Part shown: one piece after another, positions 1,038 to 38,842 of the stretch | Layout: each line of letters opens with the position of its first letter | How positions within the stretch are numbered: position 1 is the first letter of the stretch | Source: Angustibacter luteus | Lineage (GTDB): Bacteria > Actinomycetota > Actinomycetes > Actinomycetales > Angustibacteraceae | Length of the DNA stretch: 64,000 nucleotides | NCBI RefSeq assembly: GCF_039541115.1 | Contig: NZ_BAABFP010000002.1 | Location: 992,001-1,056,000, forward strand | Direction of reading: 5' to 3' | Made by a program: the position numbers and the translations under genes | The notes under the pieces: model-generated | Databases searched by the model: none | What the model was told of the DNA's origin: nothing | What the model saw: the letters and a program-made list of their open reading frames with translations, nothing else

Positions 1038-2076
1038 GCCCGACCAGCACCGGCTCGTTGACCAGCGTCACGGCAAACTCGTCCTGCACGCCGTCCCGCA
1101 CCACCCGGGCCAGCGCCACCAGCTCGGCCGCCGAGGCACCGCCACGGTTCGTCACCGCGAGCGTGTGCTTGGTCGAGAGCGCGACCCGTCCCGGCAACCC
1201 GAAGCCCTTGCCGAAGCCGGCCCGCTCGATCAGCCACGCGGCACTCGTCTTGGTGCCGGCGTCCTCCGGCCAGGCCGGCGGCTCGACGTCCGGCCCGAGG
1301 CGCTCGCGCACCCGCTCGCGCAGCCGCTCGAAGTCCGTCGCGGACAGGATCGGGTTGGTGAAGAACGACCCCGCGCTCCAGGTGTCGTGGTCCTCGGCGT
1401 CCAGCACCATGCCCCGGCGGCGGCGCTGCTCGAGCACGGCCTGCCGGGCGTCGGCGAGCGGGACCCGGCCACCCACCTCGACGCCGAGGCCCTGGGCCAG
1501 GTCGCGGTAGCCGATCGGTGCGGACAGGTCACCCAGCCGCAGCTGGAACAGCACGTCCAGCACCACGAAGCGGTCGGTGCCCTTGAACGCGCTGTGCCGG
1601 TAGGTGAACCGGCAGTCCGCGTTGGCCACGGTGACCACCTGCTGGCCGAACCGGTCCCACACCCGCACCTGGGCGATCGTCTGGGAGACCTCCTGGCCGT
1701 ACGCGCCGACGTTCTGCACCGGCGTGGCGCCGACCGAGCCGGGGATGCCGGACAGCGCCTCGATGCCCACCCAGCCCTCGTCGGCGGCGCGGGCCACCAG
1801 GTCGTCCCAGGGCTCCCCCGCGGCGACCCGCACGTTCACCCCGCCGCAGCCGTCGGCCGACTCCACCACGACCCCGGACGACGCGACCCGGACGACGGTG
1901 CCGGGCACCGGCTCGTCGCTGACCAGCAGGTTCGAGCCGCCGGCCAGCAGCAGCAGCGACTCGTCGGCGTCGTCGACCTCGCGGACGGCGTCCACCAGCT
2001 CGTCGGTCGTGGACGCCGTGACCAGCCGCTCCGGCTCCCCGCCCACCCGCAGCGTGGTGAGCTCGGCCAGCCTCAC
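1027..2076 (-). CDS. murB: UDP-N-acetylenolpyruvoylglucosamine reductase
   Basis: GGSNLLVSD, GIPGSVGATPVQNVGAYG, SAGSFFTNP, KHTLAVTN, final EP motif. Confidence 0.96.
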   Translation of the reverse strand: MRLAELTTLRVGGEPERLVTASTTDELVDAVREVDDADESLLLLAGGSNLLVSDEPVPGTVVRVASSGVVVESADGCGGVNVRVAAGEPWDDLVARAADEGWVGIEALSGIPGSVGATPVQNVGAYGQEVSQTIAQVRVWDRFGQQVVTVANADCRFTYRHSAFKGTDRFVVLDVLFQLRLGDLSAPIGYRDLAQGLGVEVGGRVPLADARQAVLEQRRRRGMVLDAEDHDTWSAGSFFTNPILSATDFERLRERVRERLGPDVEPPAWPEDAGTKTSAAWLIERAGFGKGFGLPGRVALSTKHTLAVTNRGGASAAELVALARVVRDGVQDEFAVTLVNEPVLVGLSL

Positions 2077-3257
2077 GGCGTCCGCTCCTGGATCGGCTCA
2101 CGGGCCGCGGCGACCACCAGCAGGCCCAGCACCAGCGCACCGAGCACGACGTACAGCGCCCTCAGCACGCCGACGTGGTCGGCCAGGAAGCCGATCAGTG
2201 GTGGGCCGGCCAGGAACGCCGTGTACCCGATCGAGGCCACCACACTGACCCGGGCCGCGGCGTGCTCGGGGTCGTCCGCGGCGGCGCTCATGCCGACCGG
2301 GAAGCCCAGCGAGGCCCCCAGACCCCAGAGCACCGTCCCCACCACCGCCACCGGCACCGACCCGCCGATGATCACCATGAGCAGCCCGGCCGCCGCCAGT
2401 GCCGCGGTGACCCGCAGCACCGGCACCCGCCCGAAGCGGTCGAGCATCCGGGTGCCGAGCAGGCGCCCCACCGTCATGGAGCTGACGAAGACCGCGAAGC
2501 CGAGCACCGCGTGCGCGTTCGAGACGTCGTAGCCGTCCCGGAAGGCCAGCGCGAGCCAGTCGTTCGCCGAGCCCTCGGTGAACGCGAACGCCAGCACCAG
2601 CAGCCCGATCGCGAGCGTGCGCGGCTCGAGCCACGCCTGCATCGGGTGCCGGCGCTCCTTCGGCCGGTCGTGGGTGAGCGCCTCGACCACCTCGGCCTCG
2701 GGCAGGAACGACCCGCACGCCACCTGGGTCAGCACCGCGGCCACCACCGCGACGGCCGCGAGGTGCGCGGCGGTGGACAGGTCGATCGCGTTGGCCCAGG
2801 CGCCGAGCAGCGCTCCGACGACCGTGCCGATGCTGAACGCCGCGTGGAAGTGCGGCATGATCGCCCGGCCCAGCCGCCGCTCGACCTCGGCGCCCTCGAC
2901 GTTCATCGCGACGTCCCAGGAGCCGGACCCGAAGCCCACCAGGAACAGTCCGGGCGCCAGGACGGCCACCGAGTCGGCCAGGCCGACGAGGAGTAGCCCG
3001 GTCGCGCAGACGACGGAGGCGACCCGCACCGTCCCGGCCGCGCCGATCCGGACGACGACCGCGCCGGTCAGCGGCAGGGCCAGCACGGCCCCGCCGGACA
3101 TCGCGAGCAGGATCAGGCCCAGGCTCGAGGAGGACAGGCCGAGGCTGTCGCGGATCGCCGGGATGCGCGAGATCCAGGTGGCCATGATCAGGCCGTTGAG
3201 CAGGAAGACGCTCGTGACGGCGACCCGGGCGCGGGCCGCCCCGGGCGCCGGGGTCAT
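2073..3257 (-). CDS. MFS transporter
   Basis: about 12 hydrophobic segments, DVAMN and DRFGR motifs; overlaps murB start. Confidence 0.88.
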   Translation of the reverse strand: MTPAPGAARARVAVTSVFLLNGLIMATWISRIPAIRDSLGLSSSSLGLILLAMSGGAVLALPLTGAVVVRIGAAGTVRVASVVCATGLLLVGLADSVAVLAPGLFLVGFGSGSWDVAMNVEGAEVERRLGRAIMPHFHAAFSIGTVVGALLGAWANAIDLSTAAHLAAVAVVAAVLTQVACGSFLPEAEVVEALTHDRPKERRHPMQAWLEPRTLAIGLLVLAFAFTEGSANDWLALAFRDGYDVSNAHAVLGFAVFVSSMTVGRLLGTRMLDRFGRVPVLRVTAALAAAGLLMVIIGGSVPVAVVGTVLWGLGASLGFPVGMSAAADDPEHAAARVSVVASIGYTAFLAGPPLIGFLADHVGVLRALYVVLGALVLGLLVVAAAREPIQERTP

Positions 3258-3703
3258 GCGAGTCGGACGACGGCTCGCGCGCGCCCCAGGACGGTGAGCG
3301 CCGCGCCGTCCGGTCCGGGCGTGGTGGCGGTCAGGTCGATCCGGGCGGTCCGCGCCTCGTCGTCCAGGACCGCCACCTTCCCGGCGACCGTGACCTGCGC
3401 GCCCTCGACGTCGTCCACCGGGACGGGCTTGGTGAACCGCACGCCGTACTGGACGACGGCACCGGGGTCGCCGACCCAGTCCACGACCAGGCGCACGGCC
3501 GTGGCCATGGTGAGCATGCCGTGCGCGATGACGCCGGGCAGGCCGACCTCGCGGGCGAACCGCTCGTTCCAGTGGATCGGGTTGAAGTCGCCGCTGGCGC
3601 CGGCGTACCGGACCAGGTCGGCGCGGGTCAGCGTGAACGTGTGCTCGGGCAGCTCGTCGCCGACCGCGAGGCCGTCGAACGTGGGCGCGGTGGTCTGGGT
3701 CAT
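3254..3703 (-). CDS. MaoC-family hotdog dehydratase (HadB-like)
   Basis: YAGASGDFNPIHW...VIAHGM hydratase motif; TGATG coupling to upstream gene. Confidence 0.92.
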   Translation of the reverse strand: MTQTTAPTFDGLAVGDELPEHTFTLTRADLVRYAGASGDFNPIHWNERFAREVGLPGVIAHGMLTMATAVRLVVDWVGDPGAVVQYGVRFTKPVPVDDVEGAQVTVAGKVAVLDDEARTARIDLTATTPGPDGAALTVLGRARAVVRLA

Positions 3704-4143
3704 CACTCGCCTCCGCGGACGACGATCGTGGAGACGGCCGTGCAGACCGCCTCGCCGGACTCGGTGGAGATCTCGCTGCGGGTGGTCACCATGGAGTGGC
3801 CGCCGGCCGAGCGCACGCTGTCGACGTGCAGCACGGCCACCAGCCGGTCACCGGCCACGATGGGCCGGTGGTGGGTGAAGGTCTGCTCGCCGTGCACGAC
3901 GCGGCTGAAGTCGATGCCGGCCTCGGGGTCGCGGACCAGCTGGGCGTCGCAGCGCTGGGCGACGATCACGGCGAACGTGGTCGGGGCGATGACGTCGGGG
4001 TAGCCGAGCGCGCGGGCGGCGTCGGCGTCCGTGCTCGCCGGGTGCGCGCCGGTCGCCTCGGCGAACTCGCGGATCTTCTCGCGGCCGACCTCGTAGGGGG
4101 GCGTGGGCGGGTACTGCCGCCCCGCGACGGCTGGGTTCACCAT
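3703..4143 (-). CDS. MaoC N-terminal-type dehydratase partner (HadA-like)
   Basis: YEVGREKIREFA, APTTF, VVHGEQ motifs; typical position after rpmG; TAGCGT -10 seven nt before ATG 4143. Confidence 0.9.
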   Translation of the reverse strand: MVNPAVAGRQYPPTPPYEVGREKIREFAEATGAHPASTDADAARALGYPDVIAPTTFAVIVAQRCDAQLVRDPEAGIDFSRVVHGEQTFTHHRPIVAGDRLVAVLHVDSVRSAGGHSMVTTRSEISTESGEAVCTAVSTIVVRGGE

Positions 4144-4179
4144 GGCGCTCACGCTACCGGCAGGCCCGGACACGACGAA

Positions 4180-4207
4180 GCGGCCGCCCCCTGGTGGGGA
4201 CGGCCGC
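4180..4207 (-). terminator. GC-rich hairpin downstream of rpmG
   Basis: minus strand GCGGCCGTCCCC-ACCA-GGGGGCGGCCGC followed by TTCGT. Confidence 0.55.
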
Positions 4208-4234
4208 CATCGACGTCGTGTGCGTGGACCGTGG

Positions 4235-4405
4235 TCAGCGGGTCTCGCGGTGCACCGTGTGGCGCTTCTCGCGGCGGCAGTACTTCTTGAGCTCGAGCCG
4301 GTCGGGGTCGTTGCGCCGGTTCTTCTTGGTGATGTAGTTGCGCTCCTTGCACTCCGTGCACGCCAGAGTGATCTTGGGGCGGACGTCGGTGGACTTGCTG
4401 GCCAC
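4235..4405 (-). CDS. rpmG: 50S ribosomal protein L33
   Basis: [37 protein letters not shown]...HRETR. Confidence 0.97.
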
Positions 4406-4486
4406 GGGACTACTCACTTTCGAAGGTCTTCGGACTAAGACAACTGCACAAGGGTACGTGAGGAGTGGTCTGCTCTCCAAACGGCC

Positions 4487-4563
4487 TGGTAGCGAGGGCG
4501 GGACTCGAACCCGCGACACCACGATTATGAGTCGTGTGCTCTAACCACCTGAGCTACCCCGCC
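4487..4563 (-). tRNA. tRNA-Met (CAT), probably elongator
   Basis: GGCGGGGTAGCTCAGGTGGTTAGAGC...CTCATAA...GGTTCGAGTCC...CTCGCTACCA; CCA encoded. Confidence 0.93.
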
Positions 4564-4571
4564 AATGCGGG

Positions 4572-4598
4572 CCCCGCCGCCCGGATCGGGCGGCGGGG
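4572..4598. other. 11-bp perfect hairpin in the tRNA-Thr/tRNA-Met spacer
   Basis: CCCCGCCGCCC-GGATC-GGGCGGCGGGG. Confidence 0.7.
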
Positions 4599-4607
4599 AC
4601 CCACCAG

Positions 4608-4680
4608 AGCCCCAATACGGAATCGAACCGTAGACCTTCTCCTTACCATGGAGACGCTCTACCGACTGAGCTATTGGGGC
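4608..4680 (-). tRNA. tRNA-Thr (GGT)
   Basis: GCCCCAATAGCTCAGTCGGTAGAGC...ATGGTAA...GGTTCGATTCC...TTGGGGCT; CCA not encoded. Confidence 0.95.
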
Positions 4681-4726
4681 AGCGCGACGAGCGTACACGG
4701 TGCTGAGCCGGGGGGAGAAATCGGCT

Positions 4727-4825
4727 CCGCCACCCAGCCCGCTTTCCGCCTCTGAGGCCGGAATCACGCGCGGAAAACCGGCCTGAGTGGCGGAAACCGG
4801 CGTGAGTGGCGGAAGTGGGTCAGTG
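4727..4825. repeat. REP-like cluster of degenerate ~19-20 bp repeats
   Basis: direct copies GCGGAAAACCGGCCTGAGTG, GCGGAAACCGGCGTGAGTG, GCGGAAGTGGGTCAGTG, plus an inverted degenerate copy at 4727-4749. Confidence 0.55.
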
Positions 4826-5434
4826 GCCGGCCAGGAGCTGCTCGAACGGGGTCGGGTCGTCGAAAGGGTCGACCCGCTCGACCCGCGGGCGGCCCGTGAC
4901 GGCGGCCGCCAGCTCACCGCCGGCCCGCTCGACCCGGGCGGACAGGCTGGACGGCAGGCTCCCCCCGCCCCAGTCCTCCGTGGCCGCGAACACCGCGGTC
5001 GGCACGACGTCCGCGCGCAGGTAGGCGAACAGCGGCCGCAGGGCGAAGTCCAGTGCCAGCGAGTGCCGCGCGGTGCCGCCGGTGGCGGCCAGCAGGACCG
5101 GCGTGCCACCCAGCGAGCCCTCGTCCAGCACGTCGAAGAACGTCTTGAACAGCCCGCTGTAGGAGGCGTTGAAGATCGGGGTCACGGCGACGACCGCGTC
5201 CGCGGCGGCGACGGCGTCCACCGCCTCGCGCAGCGCGGGCGGCGGGAAGCCGGTCAGCAGGTGGTTGGCCAGGTCGTGCGCGAGCTCACGCAGCTCGACG
5301 ACCCGGACGTCGACGTCCTGGCCGTGCGCCGCGAGCGCCGTGACGGTCGCCTGGGAGAGCCGGTCGGCCAGCAGTCGGGTGGACGACGGCTGGCTGAGTC
5401 CGGCGCTCACGACGACCAGGGAGCGGCGGCTCAT
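4820..5434 (-). CDS. NAD(P)H-dependent FMN reductase (CE1759-like)
   Basis: SAGLSQPSSTRLL, TPIFNASYSGLFK, ATGGTARH motifs; coupled to LLM gene. Confidence 0.92.
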   Translation of the reverse strand: MSRRSLVVVSAGLSQPSSTRLLADRLSQATVTALAAHGQDVDVRVVELRELAHDLANHLLTGFPPPALREAVDAVAAADAVVAVTPIFNASYSGLFKTFFDVLDEGSLGGTPVLLAATGGTARHSLALDFALRPLFAYLRADVVPTAVFAATEDWGGGSLPSSLSARVERAGGELAAAVTGRPRVERVDPFDDPTPFEQLLAGH

Positions 5435-6540
5435 ACGGCCACCGCCTCGGCCTGCTCAGCGGACTCGGTCTGCGCAGCGGCGAGCAGCGAGGCGTGGGTC
5501 GGCGCGTCCGGCACGTGCGACGGGCGGCCGATCGCGAGCTCCCGGCGCAGCACGGGCACGACCTCCTCGCCGAGGATGTCCAGCTGCTCGAGGACGGTCT
5601 TGAGCGGCAGGCCCGCGTGGTCCATGAGGAAGAGCTGGCGCTGGTAGTCGCCGACCACGTCGCGCATGCCGGCGTAGCGGTCGATGACCTCCTGCGGGCT
5701 GCCGACGGTCAGCGGCGTCTGCGCGGTGAAGTCCTCCATCGACGGGCCGTGGCCGTAGACCGGGGCGTTGTCGAAGTAGGGCCGGAACTCGCGCTTGGCG
5801 TCCTGGCTGTTGGCGCGCATGAAGACCTGGCCGCCGAGGCCGACGATGGCCTGGTCCGCCTGGCCGTGGCCGTAGTGCTCGAAGCGGCGGCGGTAGAGCG
5901 CGACCATCTGCTGGGTGTGCTCCAGCGGCCAGAAGATGTTGTTGTGGAAGAAGCCGTCGCCGTAGTAGGCGGCCTGCTCGGCGATCTCGGGGCTCCGGAT
6001 GGAGCCGTGCCAGACGAACGGCGGCACGCCGTCCAGCGGCCGGGGTGTCGAGGTGAAGCCCTGCAGCGGCGTCCGGTACGAGCCCTGCCAGTCGACGACG
6101 TCCTCGCGCCACAGCCGGCGCAGCAGGGCGTAGTTCTCGACGGCCAGGTTCAGGCCGTCCCGGATGTCCTTGCCGAACCACGGGTAGACGGGGCCGGTGT
6201 TGCCGCGGCCCATCATCAGGTCGACCCGGCCGCCGGCCAGGTGCTGCAGCATCGCGTAGTCCTCGGCGATCTTCACCGGGTCGTTGGTGGTGATCAGCGT
6301 CGTGGACGTCGACAGGACGATCCGCTCGGTCTGCGCGGCCAGGAAGCCGAGCATCGTCGTCGGGGACGACGGCACGAACGGCGGGTTGTGGTGCTCACCG
6401 GTGGCGAAGACGTCGAGCCCGACCTCCTCGGCCTTCCTCGCGATGGTCACCATCGCCTGGATCCGCTCCGCCTCCGTGGGCGTGCGACCCGTCGTGGGGT
6501 CCGGCGTGACGTCGCCGACGGTGAAGATCCCGAACTGCAT
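5431..6540 (-). CDS. luciferase-like (LLM) flavin monooxygenase (CE1758-like)
   Basis: MQFGIFTVGD, GEHHNPPF, VWHGSIRSPE. Confidence 0.93.
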   Translation of the reverse strand: MQFGIFTVGDVTPDPTTGRTPTEAERIQAMVTIARKAEEVGLDVFATGEHHNPPFVPSSPTTMLGFLAAQTERIVLSTSTTLITTNDPVKIAEDYAMLQHLAGGRVDLMMGRGNTGPVYPWFGKDIRDGLNLAVENYALLRRLWREDVVDWQGSYRTPLQGFTSTPRPLDGVPPFVWHGSIRSPEIAEQAAYYGDGFFHNNIFWPLEHTQQMVALYRRRFEHYGHGQADQAIVGLGGQVFMRANSQDAKREFRPYFDNAPVYGHGPSMEDFTAQTPLTVGSPQEVIDRYAGMRDVVGDYQRQLFLMDHAGLPLKTVLEQLDILGEEVVPVLRRELAIGRPSHVPDAPTHASLLAAAQTESAEQAEAVAV

Positions 6541-9253: not shown

Positions 9254-11296
9254 CTAGCGCAGGAAGGCCGCGGCGACGCCCGCGTCGACGGGCACGTGCA
9301 GGCCGGTCGTGTGGGTCAGGTCCGGGCCGACGAGGGCGAACACGGCGTTCGCGACGTGCTCGGGCAGCACCTCGCGCTTGAGCAACGTGCGCTGGGCGTA
9401 GAAGGCGCCGAGGTCCTCCTCCGCCACGCCGTAGACCGCCGCCCGGTTGGCCCCCCAGCCACCGGCGAAGATGCCCGAGCCCTGCACCACGCCGTCCGGG
9501 TTGATCCCGTTGACCCGCACCCCGTACTCGCCGAGCTCGGCGGCCAGCAGCCGGACCTGGTGCGCCTGGTCGGCCTTCACCGCCGAGTAGGCGATGTTGC
9601 TCGGGCCGGCGAAGACCGAGTTCTTGGACGAGATGTACACGATGTCGCCGCCCAGCCCCTGCTCGATCAACACCTTCGCCGCGGCCCGCGCGACGAGGAA
9701 GGAGCCCTTCGCCATCACGGCGTGCTGAAGGTCCCAGTCCGCGGCCGTCGTCTCCAGCAGCGACCGGGACAGCGACAACCCGGCGTTGTTCACCACCAGG
9801 TCGAGGCCACCGAAGGCCAGCAGGGTGGCGTCGACCGCCGCCTGCACAGCTGCCTCTTCGCTGACGTCCGCCTGGACCCCGATCGCGACGTCCGGGCCGC
9901 CGATCTCGGCCGCGGCCGCCTGCGCCTTGGCCAGGTCGAGGTCGGCGATGGCCACGACCGCTCCCTCGGCTGCGAGCCGGTGCGCGATGGCCTTGCCGAT
10001 GCCGGACGCCGCCCCCGTCACCAGCGCGATCCGCGAGGCCAGCGCCTTCGGCTTGGGCATCCGGGCGAGCTTGGCCTCCTCCAGCGCCCAGTACTCGATC
10101 CGGAACTTCTCGGACTCGTCGATGGGCGCGTACGTCGACAGCCCCTCGGCGCCACGCATCACGTTGATGGCGTTGACGTAGAACTCCCCTGCCACCCGGG
10201 CGGTCTGCTTGTCCTTGCCGAAGCTGAACATGCCGACGCCGGGCACCAGCACGATCAGCGGGTCCGCACCACGGATGGCCGGCGAGCTCTCGTCGGCGTG
10301 CCGCTCGTAGTACGCCTGGTAGTCCGCCCGGTAGGCGGTGTGCAGCTCGCGCAGACGGGCGATCGACTGCTCGACGGACGCCGTCCCCGGCAGGTCCAGC
10401 AGCAGCGGCTTGACCTTCGTGCGCAGGAAGTGGTCGGGGCAGCTGGTGCCCAGCGCAGCCAGTCGCGCGTGCTCGCTGCGGGAGAGGAAGTCCAGGACCT
10501 CGTCGCTGTCGGTGAAGTGCCCCACCTGGGGCCGGTCCTGGGAGGCGATCGAGCGCACCGTGGCCGCCAGGGCGGCGGCCTTCGCCCGGCGCGCGGCGGC
10601 TCCGAGCTGCTCGAAGCCGTCGAGCACCGACCCGAACGGCTCGGGCGCGGAGTTCTCGGCGATGTACTCGGCCGCCGTGTCGATCATCCAGAGCGAGTGA
10701 CGTTCGGCCTCTTCGCTGGTGTCACCCCAGGCGGTGATCCCGTGACCGCCCAGCACGCAGCCGACCGCCTGCGGGTTGGCCGCCTGGATCGCGGCGATGT
10801 CCAGTCCCAGCTGGAAGCCCGGGCGACGCCAGGGCACCCAGACGACCTGGTCGCCGTAGACGGCTCGGGTCAGCTCCTCGCCGTCCGCCGCCGTGGCGAT
10901 CGCGATCCCGGAGTCCGGGTGCAGGTGGTCGACGTGCGGCGCGTCCACCAGGGCGTGCATCGCGGTGTCGATGGACGGCGCGGCGCCGCCCTTGCCGTGC
11001 AGGCAGTAGTCGAAAGCCGCGACCATCTCGTCCTCACGGTCGACACCGGGGTAGACGCCGACCAGGGCCTGCAGCCGATCCAGTCGCAGCACGGCCAGCC
11101 CGGCCTCCGTCAGGGTGCCGAGATCGCCCCCGGACCCCTTGACCCACAACAGGTCGACGTCCTCGCCGGTCACCGGGTCGGTCAGGCGACCCTTGGCCGA
11201 GGTGTTGCCGCCGGCGTAGTTGGTGTTCTTGGGGTCCGCCCCCAACCGGTTCGAGCGAGCGATCAGCTCCTGCGCCGTCCCTGTCGATACGTTCAC
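9254..11296 (-). CDS. rhaD: bifunctional rhamnulose-1-phosphate aldolase / short-chain dehydrogenase (RhaEW type)
   Basis: class II aldolase N-term (GGNTSAK, HLHPD, CPDHF) plus SDR C-term (TGAASGIG, NNAG, YSAVK). Confidence 0.93.
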   Translation of the reverse strand: MNVSTGTAQELIARSNRLGADPKNTNYAGGNTSAKGRLTDPVTGEDVDLLWVKGSGGDLGTLTEAGLAVLRLDRLQALVGVYPGVDREDEMVAAFDYCLHGKGGAAPSIDTAMHALVDAPHVDHLHPDSGIAIATAADGEELTRAVYGDQVVWVPWRRPGFQLGLDIAAIQAANPQAVGCVLGGHGITAWGDTSEEAERHSLWMIDTAAEYIAENSAPEPFGSVLDGFEQLGAAARRAKAAALAATVRSIASQDRPQVGHFTDSDEVLDFLSRSEHARLAALGTSCPDHFLRTKVKPLLLDLPGTASVEQSIARLRELHTAYRADYQAYYERHADESSPAIRGADPLIVLVPGVGMFSFGKDKQTARVAGEFYVNAINVMRGAEGLSTYAPIDESEKFRIEYWALEEAKLARMPKPKALASRIALVTGAASGIGKAIAHRLAAEGAVVAIADLDLAKAQAAAAEIGGPDVAIGVQADVSEEAAVQAAVDATLLAFGGLDLVVNNAGLSLSRSLLETTAADWDLQHAVMAKGSFLVARAAAKVLIEQGLGGDIVYISSKNSVFAGPSNIAYSAVKADQAHQVRLLAAELGEYGVRVNGINPDGVVQGSGIFAGGWGANRAAVYGVAEEDLGAFYAQRTLLKREVLPEHVANAVFALVGPDLTHTTGLHVPVDAGVAAAFLR

Positions 11297-29953: not shown

Positions 29954-32638
<2,685 letters not shown>

Positions 32639-32809
32639 CCGTGAGACATCTACCGCGGACTCTGGCAGCGCCGTCCGGGGACGGCCTCACCCGTGCAAGG
32701 TGATGCCGAGGATGGGCACTCAGCGGGGTAGCGCCGTCCCCGGACCACCTGGACGGGGTTTCCTAAATGGCCCGTGTTGCCCCGGTCAGCGCACTAGCCT
32801 GGGCGCATC

Positions 32810-35800
32810 GTGGAGGACCCCGGGGCGCCGTCCGAGCTCGACCTGCTCGTCGAGCTCACCGCCGTGTCGTCGGACGACGACCGCGAGGTGTACGCCTGGC
32901 GCCACCCGTCGATCCTCGAACCAGGCGTGGCTGAGCGCCTGGCACCGCAGGTGGAGAAGGCACCTCCTGACGCCCGCCCCGCGATGGCGGGGGCCCTGGC
33001 CTACCTGTGGGACGTCCGCCACCGGTACGAGGAGTACGACGCCGGCTACCCGGTCGGCATCGGGCCCGTCGAGGGCGTGTGGCAGCAGGTCGACTCCGGT
33101 GCGATCTCCCTGGCCGAGGGTGTCCGCCGGGTACGTGCACCCGCGTTTACCGCTGTCCTCTCCAGCCGCTACCTCACAGCGCTCGCGCACTGGATCGGCG
33201 ACCAGGTGTCGCGCGGGGGCTGGCGCCCGAGCCTGCAGATGGCACGACTGGCGCGGGCCGCCGCTGACGGCGCCACTGATGCCGTGGCGCCGCTCACCGC
33301 GCACGTGGCGATCGCCGTCGCCTGGGTCGAGGTCGCGAAGGTTGCCCTCGCCGACGTCCCGGACGGCGCCCTGCTCGCCGAGTCGCGGACCCTCTGCGAG
33401 AGCGTGCTCGCCAGGTTGGGACCGGACGGCGATCCGCGCTCGCGCGCCTCGGTGTGGTTCAGCCTCGGGACGCTCTACCTGGATCCCTACGTCGCCGGGG
33501 CGAGCACCGGGCACCTCGCGGATCGCAGCGAGGCCTGGCAGCAGCGTGGGGCGATCGCGGCGGCGGGCCGGGGCGTCGACGAGGTGCCGCCCATGCCCGA
33601 GCTGCTCGACGCACTCGAGCTCGCCGAGGACTTCCTCCGTCGCTCACTGGCCCTGCGCGGGCCCGGTCGACGGGCCGTGGCCCTCAAGGCGCTGGTCGAC
33701 GTGCTGACCTGGCGCAACGAGCTGACCCAAGAGAACGACTCCCAGGACATCACCGCGGTGTGCCGAGAGGCGCTCGCCGATCTCGGCGAGGAGGCCCACG
33801 CGCGACTTCGCCTGTCCTTGCTGAGCGCGCTGCAGTTCTACGGGGAGGAGGTGGACGTCGACGCCGTCGGGCCGGTGCTCGTCGCGCCTCCCGAGGAGCT
33901 CGCCGAGGCCTTGGGGGCCGAGAACGCGGCCACGACCCTGCTGACCGCCATCCGCCTGGTGCTCCCCACGCAGCCGCGAACCGCGTTGGACGCCGTGAAG
34001 CGCCTCCAGCCGTTCTTTTCCGCCGGCACCGACGACCTTCGGGTCGCCGCCCTCGAGGTGGAGCTGACCGCATTGGCGGACAGCCTGGTCGGGACGCTGC
34101 CGACCCGAGGATCCCTGGCCGCCGACGTTCGGGAGGTGCAGGCCCGGGCCACGACCGAGGGCTGGAACGGCGCCCACCGCGCGGCGGCGATGCTCCGCCT
34201 CGCGGGCCGGGCGAGCGCCACGGACGAGGAAGCGCTCGGCCTCGAGCTGATCGACCAGATCCCTACGATCAGCCCCATCGTCGCGTCCGAGCACTGGCAG
34301 CTCGTGGCGTGGCTGCGCACCATCCTGCAGCTGGACATGGGGGTCAACGCGTTCCGCGCCGCCCGGTGGGCGGAGTGCGCGGACTGGTACGCGCGGGCCC
34401 TGTCCGGGTTCCTGGACCTGGGTCTCGACGACCGCGCGCTCGCGACGCTGCTGCGCGTCGGCGACATCACCAGCCGCGCGGACACACCGGTCGAGGCCGC
34501 GTTCCTGCGGGCGCTCGCGCCCAACGCCGCGCGGATCGAGACACGGCTCGGTGACGGCGCGACCGAGGTCATCCAGGACATGGTCCGGTTGGCGATGGTG
34601 ACGTTCAGCGGCCGGGCCATCAGCGGTGAGGCGATGAACCTGCTGTGGCAGGTCGCGAAGGGCGCCCGGCTTGCCCCGGTGCTCGCGGCAACCAGTGACT
34701 ACGACCCGACACGGGACGAGTACCCCGCCCGCCTCCTCGCCCAGATCGCGGACCTGCGGGCAGAGCTGGCCGTCGAGCCGGGCGTCTCGGGTCGCGACCC
34801 GGAGGTGCTGCTCGACGAGGACTCGGTGCTCACGGCGTACGCACGTCGACGGTCCGTCGATGGTGGCTCGACGCTGGAGGAGCAGATCGTCAACCTCGAG
34901 CACGCGTTCGACGAGGTGGTCACCCAGCGGATGCTCCTGACGCCCGGGGTGGCCTCGGCGGCCTACTTGTCCCTCGAGGAGGTCCAGCAGACGCTGTCCG
35001 ACCGCACCGTCCTCATCAGCCTGTACCTCGGGGCGGCGGAGGACGGCCGCATGGCGGTCTACGTCCTGTACCTGACGGACACCGACGTCGGCGTGAGCGT
35101 CATCCCCCACGGCTTCCCGTTCAGCATGATCGAGATGGGGGGCCTGACCGCCAACCCGTTCGGACTGATCGTCGCAGCCACGAGGCGCGCCGTCATGGAG
35201 CCGCCGCTCGGCCGGCGACTGGCGTCCCGCGAGGCCGAGGACACCCTGGCGACCTACCTACCGGGTCTGCTCGGTCACGTCAGCGAGCGCCTGACGGAGT
35301 TCCGGGCCTCCGGGCGGGACCACCTGTGCATCGTGCCGCACGGGCCCCTGCACTACTTCCCCTTCCACCTGCTCGGTCCACCCGGCCACCCGCTGGCGGA
35401 GGACTTCGCGGTCACCTACCTGCCGCACCTCTACCTGCTGGCGGGACGCGACGGCGTGGCGCCGGCCGTGCCGATCGGTACCGCGGTCGGTCTCGGCTTC
35501 GCGGACGACGGGCGACCTGGGCTGCACCCGCTGCCCGAGGCGGTGCCGGAGGCGAAGGACGTCGCGGCACTGTTCGGCAGCGGCGCCCTCACCGACGAAC
35601 GTGCGACGGAACCCGCTGTGGTCGAGGCGCTGTCCACGTCCGGTGTCGTGCACCTCGCGACCCACGGCCGGCACAACGTCGACGCTCCCGCGTTCCAGAC
35701 GCTGTACGTCCACCCCACGGCCGAAACCGACGGCCGGCTGCACGCCTACGAGCTGCTCGGCCGCGACCTCAGTGGCCTGCGCCTGCTCACGTTGAGCGCC

Positions 35801-36100
35801 TGCGAGACGGCACTGGGCCGGTTCGACCGGGGCGACAACCTCCGCGGCCTGCCGGCGAGCTTCTTCATCAGCGGGGTCCGCACGCTGATCGGGACGCTGT
35901 GGACCGTGCCGGATCCCGTCTCGCGCCACTTCTTCACGACGTTCCACCGCAACCGTGCCGACGGCCGCTCGCTGCTCGACGCGTTCGTTGCAGCCCAACG
36001 CGAAACCAGGACGTCGTACCCGCAGTACCGTGACTGGGGCGCCTTCACGTTCTCGGGCGACTGGGTGGATCGTGACGCAGCTCCCGGGGAGGACCCATGA
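32810..36100 (+). CDS. CHAT-domain protease with long helical (TPR-like) N-terminus
   Basis: IVPHGPLHYFPF, HLATHG (His952), LSACET (Cys998), GTLWTV.D, WGAFTFSG. Confidence 0.9.
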   Translation: MEDPGAPSELDLLVELTAVSSDDDREVYAWRHPSILEPGVAERLAPQVEKAPPDARPAMAGALAYLWDVRHRYEEYDAGYPVGIGPVEGVWQQVDSGAISLAEGVRRVRAPAFTAVLSSRYLTALAHWIGDQVSRGGWRPSLQMARLARAAADGATDAVAPLTAHVAIAVAWVEVAKVALADVPDGALLAESRTLCESVLARLGPDGDPRSRASVWFSLGTLYLDPYVAGASTGHLADRSEAWQQRGAIAAAGRGVDEVPPMPELLDALELAEDFLRRSLALRGPGRRAVALKALVDVLTWRNELTQENDSQDITAVCREALADLGEEAHARLRLSLLSALQFYGEEVDVDAVGPVLVAPPEELAEALGAENAATTLLTAIRLVLPTQPRTALDAVKRLQPFFSAGTDDLRVAALEVELTALADSLVGTLPTRGSLAADVREVQARATTEGWNGAHRAAAMLRLAGRASATDEEALGLELIDQIPTISPIVASEHWQLVAWLRTILQLDMGVNAFRAARWAECADWYARALSGFLDLGLDDRALATLLRVGDITSRADTPVEAAFLRALAPNAARIETRLGDGATEVIQDMVRLAMVTFSGRAISGEAMNLLWQVAKGARLAPVLAATSDYDPTRDEYPARLLAQIADLRAELAVEPGVSGRDPEVLLDEDSVLTAYARRRSVDGGSTLEEQIVNLEHAFDEVVTQRMLLTPGVASAAYLSLEEVQQTLSDRTVLISLYLGAAEDGRMAVYVLYLTDTDVGVSVIPHGFPFSMIEMGGLTANPFGLIVAATRRAVMEPPLGRRLASREAEDTLATYLPGLLGHVSERLTEFRASGRDHLCIVPHGPLHYFPFHLLGPPGHPLAEDFAVTYLPHLYLLAGRDGVAPAVPIGTAVGLGFADDGRPGLHPLPEAVPEAKDVAALFGSGALTDERATEPAVVEALSTSGVVHLATHGRHNVDAPAFQTLYVHPTAETDGRLHAYELLGRDLSGLRLLTLSACETALGRFDRGDNLRGLPASFFISGVRTLIGTLWTVPDPVSRHFFTTFHRNRADGRSLLDAFVAAQRETRTSYPQYRDWGAFTFSGDWVDRDAAPGEDP

Positions 36101-36813
36101 CGACGATCGACATGCCTGACCCCGTCCCGCTCGACCTGGTCCTGCAGCCCAAGGAGGAGTTCGTTCGTCGCGGCGACGGCGGACCCACGTCGACGGAGCC
36201 CGTCCGGCAGCGGATCTCCGTCGGAGGACCGATCTACCGCGGCATCGACGCGGACTCGACCGATGACCCAGAGCTGCGCCACTTCCTGGCCGAGGACGCC
36301 GCCGACTCCGACTTCTACCTCGTGCACCTCACCTGCACCCTGCGGCACGAGGACGACGAGCCGTTCACCGAGGTCCTCCTCGAGATCGACCTGGGCGAGT
36401 CCGGATCGGCGCCGGCACCGATCGCCTGGTCCATGCAGCCGGATCGCGTGACCGACGCGGTTGAGGTGTCCCGCACCGTCAGCCTCGGTCCGACCATGAA
36501 GATCCTCGGCGTCGGGGTCGAGGCCAGGGGAGAGGCCGGACGGACGCTGTCCCGGCAGGTGCCCTCGCTGGAGGCGCTCTACGAGCTCGAGTCCACCCCG
36601 AGCTGGGCGTTGTACCGCACCGAGTCGGTCGAGCTGCGCGGCCTCTACCGCTTCCACCTGGTCGTCCGCGCACCGAAGGATGCTGCCGTCACCGGCACCA
36701 CGAGCGTCGAGGCGAAGGTGCGCCGCAAGCTCCTCGGGGTCATCCCCTATCGCGCGGACCTCACCGCGGTGCCGGACGCGTTGTCCTTCACCTTGGGCGG
36801 GCGGGAGCCGTGA
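36097..36813 (+). CDS. hypothetical beta-rich protein, putative beta-pore-forming effector
   Basis: ATGA overlap with CHAT gene and GGAGG RBS; amphipathic hairpin at aa 122-151. Confidence 0.75.
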   Translation: MTTIDMPDPVPLDLVLQPKEEFVRRGDGGPTSTEPVRQRISVGGPIYRGIDADSTDDPELRHFLAEDAADSDFYLVHLTCTLRHEDDEPFTEVLLEIDLGESGSAPAPIAWSMQPDRVTDAVEVSRTVSLGPTMKILGVGVEARGEAGRTLSRQVPSLEALYELESTPSWALYRTESVELRGLYRFHLVVRAPKDAAVTGTTSVEAKVRRKLLGVIPYRADLTAVPDALSFTLGGREP

Positions 36814-37160
36814 GCACACCCGTCGACCCGTACGCGGTACCGGACGAGCTGGCTACCCGCTTCCTCGAGGTGAAGGCGATGGCCGAGGCCCTCACCGGTC
36901 CCGAGGCCGCGCAGTTCTTCGTGATGCTGACGTCCTACTCCCTGCACGGGATGGCTTACGGCGCAACGGCTCTCACGGTCTCCCGGACCGCGACCCCGAA
37001 CCTCGTCCAGACCCAGACCGGCTTCACCTGCGACGCCTCCTTCTCCCCCGACCTGCTGGCGCCCGCGACACTGCGAGCCGCCCGGATCGAGGGCGACCTG
37101 GCCACCGTCGCGCTCGAGGCCCGCCTGGAGGACATCATCCAGATCCTCCGCCTGGGCTGA
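36810..37160 (+). CDS. hypothetical protein, weak SspB-like pattern
   Basis: GTGA overlap, GGGAG RBS; LTVSRTATPNL...FTCDASFS. Confidence 0.65.
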   Translation: MSTPVDPYAVPDELATRFLEVKAMAEALTGPEAAQFFVMLTSYSLHGMAYGATALTVSRTATPNLVQTQTGFTCDASFSPDLLAPATLRAARIEGDLATVALEARLEDIIQILRLG

Positions 37161-37179
37161 CCGCGGCGACGTCCCGGGG

Positions 37180-37998
37180 TCAGCGCTGCTCGCGCGAGCA
37201 CCACCACGTGGTGCGGGTACCGACAGTGCCCCGCTGCATCGCCGCCCCGCACCGCGGGCACCGCGCCCCGGCCTTGCGGAACGGCACCACCTCCAGCGTG
37301 TGCACGCCGCCACCCGCCACGGCCTCGGCGATCGTGGCGTGCACCGCTTCGTAGAGGCGGCGAACCTGGGGGCGGGTCAGCGAGTCGACCGGACGACGGG
37401 GATCGACCCGCGCGTGCCACAGCAGCTGGTCGGCCAGCAGGTTCCCGACCCCGGCCAGCGCGTTCTGATCGAGCAGGCGCGCCTTCACCGGCGCGGTGCC
37501 GCGGCTGAGCAGCGCCCGGAACTCCTCCCAGGTCACCTCGGCGGCGTCCGGGCCGAGCCCCTCGACGTCCGGGTCGAGCCGCACCCGGCCAAGCCGACGC
37601 GGGTCGACGAGCAGCAGGCCGCCGCCGTCGGCGAACGACAGCGCGAACCGGGTGAACCGCTGGTCGCCCTGCTCGCGGCCACGCTGCCAGTAGTCACCAC
37701 CGTCGTTCTCCTGGCCGTCCGGCGCGACCGCCACGATCTTGCCGGACATCCCCAGGTGCAGGCCGAGGACCGGTCCCGGCGTGCGGGAGCGCCCCGCCCC
37801 CGACGTCTCGCACCACATCGTCTTCCCGCGCCGGTGCGCGGCGGTCAGGCGGCGGCCCACCATCGCCGCCCGGATGTCGCCCGGTCGGTGCGGTCGGCAC
37901 TCGTACGTGTCGGTGTCGTCCACGTCCACGATCCGGCGCCCGAGCGCGAGCTCGGCGATCACCGCACGGGCGGACTCGACCTCGGGCAGCTCGGGCAC
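37180..37998 (-). CDS. Fpg/Nei-family DNA glycosylase
   Basis: PELPEVE N-terminus, HLGMSG, LLDQ..AGVGN, CPRC...RTTWWC zinc finger. Confidence 0.92.
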   Translation of the reverse strand: MPELPEVESARAVIAELALGRRIVDVDDTDTYECRPHRPGDIRAAMVGRRLTAAHRRGKTMWCETSGAGRSRTPGPVLGLHLGMSGKIVAVAPDGQENDGGDYWQRGREQGDQRFTRFALSFADGGGLLLVDPRRLGRVRLDPDVEGLGPDAAEVTWEEFRALLSRGTAPVKARLLDQNALAGVGNLLADQLLWHARVDPRRPVDSLTRPQVRRLYEAVHATIAEAVAGGGVHTLEVVPFRKAGARCPRCGAAMQRGTVGTRTTWWCSREQR

Positions 37999-38065
37999 GG
38001 GTTCGAGGGTACGGCCGCTCTCGCCGACCCGCTCGCGACCGTGACCCCAGCCGGGACGGCTCGAA

Positions 38066-38842
38066 TCACGGCGTGGAGCGGATGCGGCGGGCCTCCTCGA
38101 CGAACTCGGCGAGCTCACGCCACGGCCCGGCCACCGCCTGCGACTCCCCCGACAGCGCCGCCGGTTCCTGTCGCCACGCGGCGCGGACCGCCGCACCGGC
38201 ACCCCTACCGTCGCCCGTCCCGAACCGGGCGGACAGCTCCTGCATACGCGCCACGACCTGTTGGACCGCGGCGGAGTCCGGCGCCGCACCCGAACGCCGC
38301 AGCTCCTCCGCGCGGCGGTACAGCTGCGGCCACTCGACCTCGAGGAGGTACGGCAACGCTGGCCCGACCGCGGCGGCGCCCTCGGCCACGCGCTCGCGCT
38401 CCTGCTCGCTCAGCTCCCGGGCGACCGCGTCGTCCGCGCCGCGGGCGGCCCGCACCAGCGCGAGCAGCTCCGCCGGGTTGGCGAGGTCCGCCCGGCCGTC
38501 CGCGCCTTCGTCGGTGTCCAGGACGGCGGCCAGCCGCGAACGCAGCCCGACCAGTGCCGTCACCGCGCGGTCGACCTGGGCCACCTGGTCGGTGAGCAGC
38601 CGGCGGACGTCCACGCCGCCGTCCAGGCTGCGCCGGATCGCGTCCAGCGACATGCCGAACCCGCGCAAGGTGAGGACGACGTACAGCCGGGCCAGGTCGT
38701 CCTCGGTGTATCGGCGGCGGCCGCCCATGCTGTGCCGACTCGGGCGCAGGACGCCGAGCTCGTCCCAGTGGTGCAACGTGCGCACCGTGATGCCACTCGT
38801 CTCGGCCACCTCGCCGACCGACCACGTCCTGTTGGTGTCCAT
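38066..38842 (-). CDS. MerR-family regulator (TipA-like)
   Basis: SVGEVA..SGITVRTLHHWD, GRRRY; C-terminal helical domain. Confidence 0.9.
   Translation of the reverse strand: MDTNRTWSVGEVAETSGITVRTLHHWDELGVLRPSRHSMGGRRRYTEDDLARLYVVLTLRGFGMSLDAIRRSLDGGVDVRRLLTDQVAQVDRAVTALVGLRSRLAAVLDTDEGADGRADLANPAELLALVRAARGADDAVARELSEQERERVAEGAAAVGPALPYLLEVEWPQLYRRAEELRRSGAAPDSAAVQQVVARMQELSARFGTGDGRGAGAAVRAAWRQEPAALSGESQAVAGPWRELAEFVEEARRIRSTP

Follow-up and report, generated by a model that had tools for sequence, protein, structure and literature searches.

A CHAT protease gene in an operon with genes for a predicted hemolysin-like all-beta protein and an SspB-like protein in Angustibacter luteus: a candidate protease-effector module

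A three-gene operon lies on the forward strand of a stretch of DNA of the soil actinobacterium Angustibacter luteus (64,000 nucleotides, positions 992,001 to 1,056,000 of contig NZ_BAABFP010000002.1; this whole stretch is called the window, and positions are counted within it). The operon encodes a large protein that ends in a CHAT caspase-like protease domain (gene 1), an all-beta protein of an unnamed family (gene 2) and a small protein whose predicted fold resembles that of SspB (gene 3). The genes are chained by overlaps of four nucleotides, ATGA at 36097-36100 between genes 1 and 2 and GTGA at 36810-36813 between genes 2 and 3, and are translationally coupled. This arrangement had been described in a sequence-only reading of the same DNA, and the open reading frames (ORFs) and overlaps were found exactly as given there. 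The pairing of a CHAT protease with gene 2 is widely conserved, and it is highly probable that the two form a functional module. Our preferred reading is that the operon is a cytoplasmic protease-effector module for cell death or defence, in which the CHAT protease would cleave gene 2 to a membrane-damaging form and gene 3 would act as an adaptor. For this chain as a whole we estimate a probability of roughly 0.45.

The C-terminal domain of gene 1 matches the Pfam CHAT model (PF12770) with an E-value of 6.3e-46 and 157.5 bits, against a gathering score of 24. Its ATHG motif contains His952 and its SAC motif Cys998, which we take to be the CHAT catalytic dyad. That the dyad is intact had been noted before; both residues are invariant in an alignment of 21 relatives of gene 1, distant ones at 27-45% identity included, and in an alignment to the solved CHAT chain 8rot_B (E 8.4e-13) they fall on its HG and AC motifs. 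Against solved Csx29 chains the domain gives an E-value of about 1e-5, and against separase 0.5. A PADLOC search with gene 1 returned a chance-level match only (BovA, E 0.017). Residues 1-800 have no Pfam match, and alanine, leucine, glutamate and arginine together make up 45% of them. When these 800 residues were used in a database search, 15 proteins were retrieved, 14 of which carry PF12770. We regard the N-terminal region as family-specific and presume that it is a sensor or scaffold.

The linkage between CHAT proteases and gene 2 was surveyed in 35 loci besides the window's own, two of them from genomes, 32 from metagenomes and one from a congener, and scored with purpose-built hidden Markov models (HMMs), phmmer and Pfam. 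Conserved CHAT linkage of gene 2 homologues, which had been suggested as a check on the operon, is present in 27 of the 35: in each of these a CHAT or gene-1-like gene adjoins the gene 2 relative, in three different arrangements. In 24 loci a CHAT domain ends directly upstream on the same strand. One locus has a divergent CHAT-TPR gene beside the gene 2 relative (L021), one has the gene 2 relative followed by an EAD1-CHAT protein and then a WD40 protein (L026), and in one the downstream gene is a gene-1-like ORF cut off by the contig end (L027). Three of the loci without CHAT have no sequence on the relevant side (L009, L011, L028); four are contigs of at most 2.3 kb with partial, distant matches (L029, L031, L033, L035); and one, with flanks of 6 kb, holds a truncated gene 2 relative by integrase and transposase genes (L034). 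The linkage persists down to 27-35% identity and through rearrangement, which argues for function. We conclude that CHAT and gene 2 are the conserved core, that gene 2 behaves as the effector, and that loci have exchanged their sensor parts, which are the family's own N-terminal region, TPR, or EAD1/WD40.

Three of these loci show further features. In L026 the EAD1-CHAT ORF (1243-2187) and the WD40-repeat ORF (2000-4702) overlap by 188 nucleotides in different frames; downstream of the gene 2 relative there may thus be a single EAD1-CHAT-WD40 gene, split by a frameshift or by faulty assembly. In L034 the gene 2 relative covers profile positions 56-212 and lies between an ORF with GntR and phage-integrase matches (3552-5522) and a DUF772 transposase (9529-10086); it is probably what remains of a gene that has decayed or been mobilised. 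Just upstream of gene 1, the two genome loci nearest to the window have a MacB-type ABC pair, an ATPase and an FtsX/MacB_PCD permease (L001 39-3076, L002 1626-4660). The pair overlaps the start of gene 1 in L002 and is absent from the window and from the congener.

Gene 2 belongs to a large family that has no name. Pfam (nothing above noise at E≤1), NCBIfam and PADLOC hold no family for it. A search by word index returned 41 clusters, of which the nearest with a name comes from a Kribbella sp., and a profile search of 1.84 billion representatives gave 961 relatives at E≤1e-3, 640 at E≤1e-10 and 174 at E≤1e-30, counted at 50% identity. Members are mostly 225-240 residues long, and P115 and W170 are invariant across 127 diverse members. 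No paralogue is present in the A. luteus genome itself. In one relative (P0050) the gene 2 domain is fused to EAD7 (E 1e-21). The recruitment of effectors to conflict systems is the role assigned to EAD7 by Kaur et al. (2020, eLife, PMC7159879), and the fusion marks the gene 2 domain as an effector rather than a regulator. Two other relatives carry the domain at their C-terminus: a 545-residue protein (P0170) with a weak Kdo/WaaP-kinase-like match at residues 151-208 (E 0.004), and a 334-residue protein (P0131) in which the domain stands behind a 100-residue extension that matches nothing.

The three proteins appear to be cytoplasmic. Neither a signal peptide nor a transmembrane helix is evident in any of them by a heuristic of charge and hydropathy, used in place of a dedicated predictor, in agreement with the absence of evident signal peptides noted earlier. 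The first 15 residues have a net charge of -5 in gene 1, -3 in gene 2 and -3 in gene 3, and the maximal hydropathy over 19 residues is 0.82 in gene 2 and 0.97 in gene 3.

The AlphaFold2 model of gene 2, made from a 39-sequence alignment, is an all-beta sandwich with a predicted local distance difference test score (pLDDT) of 74.4 and a predicted template modelling score of 0.71. Residues 120-152, with pLDDT below 50, are its lowest-confidence stretch. In a Foldseek search of the PDB with this model, the top ranks are all pore formers of the alpha-hemolysin/leukocidin family (E 3e-6 to 2e-4, probability about 1.0): Clostridium perfringens beta-toxin, LukGH, NetF, gamma-hemolysin, Epx, CytK, VCC and alpha-hemolysin. 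Alignment with VIA-align to toxins of this family gives Z-scores of 9-10.2 over 149-188 residues, and in an exhaustive VIA search of 48,161 chains the best match is the NetF pre-pore (Z 9.9). The nearest annotated cluster in the ESM Atlas, found by language-model features, is gamma-hemolysin/PF07968 at 0.87, a lead only; the structural listing of the Atlas gives the MspA porin with a template modelling score (TM-score) of 0.48. The guess that gene 2 is a beta-pore former, made before any of these searches, has backing at the level of fold: hemolysin/leukocidin toxins head the Foldseek ranking and both VIA lists and are the nearest named cluster of the Atlas. As described below, adhesins follow the toxins closely in the fold search, and profile comparison with leukocidins is not significant. 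As modelled, gene 2 has a hemolysin-like architecture and is not a demonstrable member of the leukocidin family.

The stem of alpha-hemolysin/leukocidin toxins lies mid-chain. At a similar place in gene 2, residues 118-146, mean hydropathy across 139 family members alternates between hydrophobic and polar, and glycines are conserved, as would be expected of a stem hairpin that refolds. In the model this segment could be an amphipathic beta-hairpin, a candidate for the membrane-inserting element. The central loop could equally be a protease-accessible site.

Gene 3 has a more confident model (pLDDT 90.5), in which an N-terminal helix is followed by a small beta-barrel. The best Foldseek matches are of the SspB family (2nys, 2qas/2qaz, 1oul, 1ox9), with probability 0.9-1.0, TM-scores of about 0.5 and E-values of only 0.015-0.05. 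The top four of the 48,161 chains in the exhaustive VIA search are again all of the SspB family (Z 8.5, 8.4, 7.3 and 7.1), with 85-96 of the 116 residues aligned. After these come designed SH3 barrels (6.6 and 6.1) and WYL domains (5-5.7), which places the SspB-like fold about 2 Z units above the next unrelated rows. The small adaptor that had been proposed as the third gene product is in keeping with this predicted fold, at the level of fold. Sequence searches give no such link: the SspB Pfam model matches none of the 24 members of the gene 3 family at E≤10, a PDB sequence search gave chance-level matches only, and the ESM Atlas, whose own model of gene 3 has a pLDDT of 0.37, gave no usable match. 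SspB carries a C-terminal ClpX-binding tail motif; gene 3 ends with its folded domain at residue 116 and has no C-terminal tail.

The gene 3 family comprises 24 clusters, and its alignment shows a strongly conserved core, TATPNLVQTQTGFxCDA, together with an almost invariant N-terminal peptide (residues 1-12). Gene 3 occurs in 10 of the 35 other loci, in each of which gene 2 shares 50% identity or more with that of the window, and it is confined to the clade closest to the window. In 13 distant loci examined, no convincing ORF for a conserved third gene follows gene 2. A complex prediction for genes 2 and 3 scored 0.00, with a mark of 0.32, and is evidence in neither direction.

We propose the following mechanism. 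The N-terminal region of gene 1, about 800 residues, would hold the CHAT protease inactive until a trigger arrives. Gene 2 would be its dedicated substrate and a latent effector, built like the alpha-hemolysin/leukocidin pore formers and with no signal for export. Once cut by gene 1 at a specific site, gene 2 would be free to form oligomers and to injure the cytoplasmic membrane from within. Three places are candidates for this site: a flexible linker near the conserved Arg24, the conserved pair Asp56-Asp57, and the loop in the middle of the chain (120-152). Gene 3 would most likely bind a peptide of gene 2 or of the trigger, and thereby either tether it to the protease or hold it back. The parts of this chain differ in strength. 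Gene 2 is probably a substrate of the CHAT protease. Membrane damage as the output has, in our view, an even chance of being correct, and a role in defence or abortive infection is predicted with odds slightly better than even.

A bolder proposal, which we hold to be unlikely as it stands, is that gene 2 represents an intracellular sister family of the alpha-hemolysin/leukocidin beta-barrel pore formers. Such a family would be present in hundreds of lineages of soil bacteria, self-directed, latent and licensed by CHAT cleavage, with an SspB-like adaptor that delivers or withholds it in one clade. If true, this would be the first described case of a caspase-like protease whose substrate is handled by an adaptor, and secreted toxins would be connected with the pores of immune suicide.

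Several observations weigh against the pore-forming defence module. That gene 2 is cleaved and where, that it forms pores, what triggers the module, what gene 3 does and that the outcome is defence are all steps that we infer. Near-identical copies from different samples (L006/L008, L019/L020, L022-L025/L032) are among the linked loci, so the number of independent lineages is below 27, and L034 has ample flanks around its truncated gene 2 relative and no CHAT gene. With respect to fold, the Foldseek TM-scores of gene 2 to hemolysin-family toxins are only about 0.3. In the exhaustive VIA search, the adhesin FnBPA reaches Z 9.8, and other MSCRAMM adhesins, pilins, Als9 and TTHA1873 fall with it at Z 8-9.8 over 120-136 aligned residues. 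PF07968 is not matched by gene 2 in the Pfam search, and a PDB profile search gave a chance match only (E 0.46). When the broad family profile was compared by hhalign with 13 leukocidin-family sequences from a phage record and plasmids, 12 of them full-length (305-392 residues) and one, the pNetB region, a 114-residue fragment, the probability was 0.3% (P 0.22). With about 2 x 13 residues the candidate hairpin is short; the conserved Arg126 breaks its hydrophobic face, and by our own reading its cross-strand amphipathicity is coherent only near the tip.

The lack of profile similarity to leukocidins, the near-equality of the Ig-like adhesin and pilin sandwiches and the imperfect amphipathicity of the hairpin would also fit a gene 2 that serves the CHAT protease as substrate or regulator and forms no pore. 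It would then be a beta-sandwich binding module whose cleavage releases or activates some other output, like Csx30 or CalpT of CRISPR-linked protease systems, or an inhibitor or scaffold of the protease. The linkage of CHAT and gene 2 would be equally strong under this explanation, and non-pore targets of proteases are known: Csx30 and CalpT are listed among the protease-associated families by Evans et al. (2025, PMC12642450). Four observations argue in the other direction. Fusion with EAD7 identifies the domain as an effector, most loci have no other conserved output gene beside the pair, the hemolysin-family alignments are longer than those of the adhesins, and a second, independent method, the ESM Atlas, also points to leukocidins. 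We consider a non-pore role unlikely, while it survives best among the alternatives.

The distribution of gene 2 bears on whether the module serves defence. A narrow gene 2 profile matched none of 400 other sampled genomes of the phylum and, in a set of 60 relatives, only one genome (G402), which is one of five congeners; a broad profile of 127 sequences added one weak match among the 400. The family is common in metagenome-derived collections and rare in representative genomes, and its chromosomal sites differ. In G402 a CHAT gene (1049 residues) and gene 2 are paired elsewhere in the genome, with glyoxalase, Sua5 and HD-domain genes on their flanks, and gene 3 is missing. Patchy spread and varied chromosomal sites are typical of accessory conflict genes. 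Other observations count against a defence role and belong with those listed above. The defence-island setting raised by the sequence-only reading was not borne out, as the window neighbours look housekeeping (glycosidase, Fpg/Nei, MerR, SDR and ABC-transporter genes). No PADLOC model matches the operon proteins, and among viral contigs the narrow profile produced 29 pattern matches, none of which encodes a relative.

It is conceivable that the module is a device for regulated proteolysis or programmed death in the bacterium's own physiology, in stress response, development or kin conflict, rather than an anti-phage system. The housekeeping-like neighbours and the lack of a PADLOC match speak for this, as do the link of such conflict systems to multicellular habits (Kaur et al., 2020, PMC7159879) and the stress roles raised for EACC1-DnaK fusions (Evans et al., 2025, PMC12642450). 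It is harder to reconcile with a distribution that is very patchy even within the genus, with genomic positions that vary between genomes, with the transposase or integrase genes near gene 2 relatives in some loci (L018, L034) and with the swapping of sensor parts between loci, features typical of accessory conflict systems. We therefore regard a purely physiological role as improbable. The last alternative, that gene 2 is a toxin or surface protein exported against other cells and the CHAT protein its maturation protease, draws on the resemblance of its fold to secreted toxins and surface adhesins and is very improbable, given that the three proteins have acidic N-termini and no evident signal peptide or transmembrane segment, that no secretion gene is found among the identified neighbours adjoining the operon in the window, and that the MacB-type ABC pair of L001 and L002 is not conserved in the window or elsewhere.

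The features of the locus are collected in the table below.

Table. Features of the operon and its flanks, in window coordinates
Feature	Position	Strand	Description
Gene 1	32810-36100	+	1096-residue ORF, GTG start; family-specific N-terminal region of about 800 residues, then C-terminal CHAT caspase-like protease domain
CHAT domain of gene 1	35291-36061	+	Residues 828-1084; His952 codon 35663-35665, Cys998 codon 35801-35803
Gene 2	36097-36813	+	238-residue ORF, ATG start; all-beta (model), unnamed family
Candidate beta-hairpin of gene 2	36448-36534	+	Residues 118-146; low-confidence stretch of the model, Gly-containing, hydropathy alternation
Gene 3	36810-37160	+	116-residue ORF, GTG start; predicted SspB-like fold (N-terminal helix and Sm-like barrel)
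Divergent intergenic region	32639-32809	.	171 nucleotides between the GH63-like gene (-) and gene 1 (+)
GH63/MGH1-like glycosidase	29954-32638	-	Pfam; flanks the operon
Fpg/Nei DNA glycosylase	37180-38289	-	Pfam; flanks the operon

The operon occupies 4.35 kb in total, and its flanks are unrelated genes on the opposite strand, as had been stated from the sequence alone. The window has a GC content of about 70%. GC at third codon positions is 0.91, 0.92 and 0.91 in genes 1, 2 and 3, compared with about 0.50 at second positions. Because third-position GC is high and each protein has conserved homologues, the three are real coding genes. Purine-rich, Shine-Dalgarno-like stretches lie just 5' of the starts of gene 2 (GGAGG-like) and gene 3 (GGGAG-like). 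The divergent intergenic region is the sole non-coding space for an operon promoter; a scan for sigma-70 consensus promoters and terminators found zero sites, which says little at 70% GC.

Beyond the two flanking genes lie MerR/TipAS, SDR and ABC-transporter genes, and a bestrophin-like gene is also among the Pfam-matched ORFs at about 28.3-41.6 kb. The Fpg/Nei ORF as listed (369 residues) overlaps the MerR/TipAS gene at 38066-38842 (-). Its Pfam domain starts only at residue 99, and translation probably begins downstream of the listed start, near 38000. Of five congeners, one (G403) has the GH63-like gene, at about 0.017 Mb, and in it the Fpg gene lies at about 4.19 Mb of a 4.76-Mb contig. 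Synteny between the window and this congener is broken, so that a clean insertion boundary of the operon cannot be drawn. The chromosome stretch around 29954-38289 is mosaic.

The A. luteus genome has a second protease-effector module, of an already described kind. On another contig (C4, locus L059 4729-7234, +) a canonical EACC1 gene (181 residues, PF19953, E 9.5e-9) is directly followed by a gene for a 651-residue Peptidase_C14 caspase-domain protein. An 814-residue ORF without a Pfam match comes after the Peptidase_C14 gene, and a C-5 cytosine DNA methylase gene lies about 2.6 kb upstream of the pair (L059 555-2111, -). Two further CHAT genes are present (C5:623065-623781, - and C8:238756-239868, -), in open frames of 924 and 981 residues. 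The first is convergent with a subtilase gene (Peptidase_S8); the other neighbours of both have no Pfam match, and neither has a gene 2 relative beside it.

Death effectors licensed by proteases (gasdermin, EACC1, Pepco, MBL nuclease and alpha/beta-hydrolase) are emerging as a general logic of bacterial immunity, parallel to caspase-gasdermin signalling in animals. That a protease can license a pore has been published before for gasdermin, Pepco and EACC1, and the concept is less new than the sequence-only reading implied. What is new here is the effector family and the added SspB-like component in a protease-licensed effector module. A recent preprint lists ten protease-associated effector families: MBL, alpha/beta-hydrolase, Pepco, EACC1, PCaspase, bGSDM, CATASP, MPE, CalpT and Csx30 (Evans et al., 2025, bioRxiv, PMC12642450). 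The gene 2 family is not named among these ten and is none of those compared by model (EACC1, Trypco1, Trypco2 and gasdermin); this, with the lack of a PADLOC match, agrees with the sequence-only reading, which did not recognise the operon as a named system. It is an eleventh candidate effector family: large (961 representatives), unnamed and faithfully linked to CHAT. Our literature search, whose reach did not include Nicastro et al. (2023, NAR), Burroughs and Aravind (2020, J Bacteriol) or the supplements of PMC12642450, yielded no paper in which a CHAT protease has a hemolysin/leukocidin-like or SspB-like partner. If the preferred reading is confirmed, one pore scaffold would serve both attack on other cells and self-sacrifice. 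The SspB-like third component raises the testable idea that substrate adaptors, as employed by AAA+ proteases, may also serve caspase-like ones. At only 4.35 kb in all, the system should be easy to reconstitute.

Among known systems, type III-E Craspase (the TPR-CHAT protein Csx29 with Csx30) is similar in that a large region, helical in Csx29, precedes the CHAT protease, and in that Craspase cleaves a co-encoded protein. It differs in context, as the identified neighbours of the operon within about 4 kb are unrelated genes. Gene 1 scores 18.7 bits against NCBIfam NF041237, for which the cut-off is 300, and was rejected as a Csx29. A Craspase locus was likewise rejected: no Cas7-11/gRAMP is present among the Pfam-matched ORFs at about 28.3-41.6 kb, a region in which no dedicated CRISPR-array scan was made. 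CATRA/CATASP, a caspase-TPR system with a small protein, gave no match in Pfam or NCBIfam, libraries in which the presence of a CATASP model is unverified. The EAD-coupled NTPase conflict systems of Kaur et al. (2020) have an EAD on the effector or core component; Pfam finds no EAD domain in the operon's three proteins, while relatives carry them (EAD7 in P0050, EAD1-CHAT in L026).

No gasdermin HMM in Pfam or in PADLOC, which presumably includes gasdermin models, matches gene 2, and on this evidence of sequence a gasdermin identity was rejected. Gasdermin chains do not appear among the fold matches listed for gene 2, an absence that does not exclude the fold. The likeness to bacterial gasdermins is one of logic: a CHAT or caspase-like protease stands beside a protein of about 240-270 residues without a signal peptide, which would form pores from inside after cleavage (Johnson et al., 2022). 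In fold, the alpha-hemolysin/leukocidin toxins (PF07968; PDB 7ahl, 9rsm, 7q9y, 7t4e) are the best-ranked class for gene 2, whose candidate flexible hairpin lies mid-chain, as does the stem of these toxins. In contrast to the toxins, of which the 12 full-length sequences compared have 305-392 residues, gene 2 has 238 residues, no signal peptide and no sequence or profile similarity to them; its hairpin is shorter and imperfect, and it is protease-linked and apparently cytoplasmic.

The model of gene 3 superposes over residues 3-116 on SspB, the substrate-delivery adaptor of ClpXP (PDB 1ou9, 8et3, 2qaz, 2nys). Gene 3 differs in its lack of the SspB Pfam match and of the tail, and in its partner: it is paired with CHAT, whereas SspB is paired with an AAA+ protease.

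The EACC1-caspase and Pepco (Trypco1/2)-protease modules come closest in organisation. They were predicted by Kaur et al. (2020, PMC7159879) and tested by Evans et al. (2025, PMC12642450), in whose work EACC1 and Pepco become pore-forming toxins when cut by caspase-like or serine proteases. Family membership was not found: PF19953 matches neither gene 2 nor gene 3, though the same model finds the other gene on contig C4, and PF19493 (Trypco1) and PF19631 (Trypco2) match neither gene as well. In a six-frame search of the whole A. luteus genome the two Trypco models gave nothing at E≤0.01, while each matched one control genome above the cut-off. The likeness lies in the arrangement of a caspase-like or serine protease beside a small, non-enzymatic, beta-rich protein, with cleavage to a pore-forming toxin shown there and predicted here for gene 2, and in the swappable sensor parts; EACC1 and Pepco modules are, moreover, prevalent in Actinobacteria. 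The differences are in the effectors, of about 110-120 residues there compared with 238 residues and a hemolysin-like sandwich-plus-hairpin model for gene 2, and in the third gene with a predicted SspB-like fold that the operon in the window adds to the pair.

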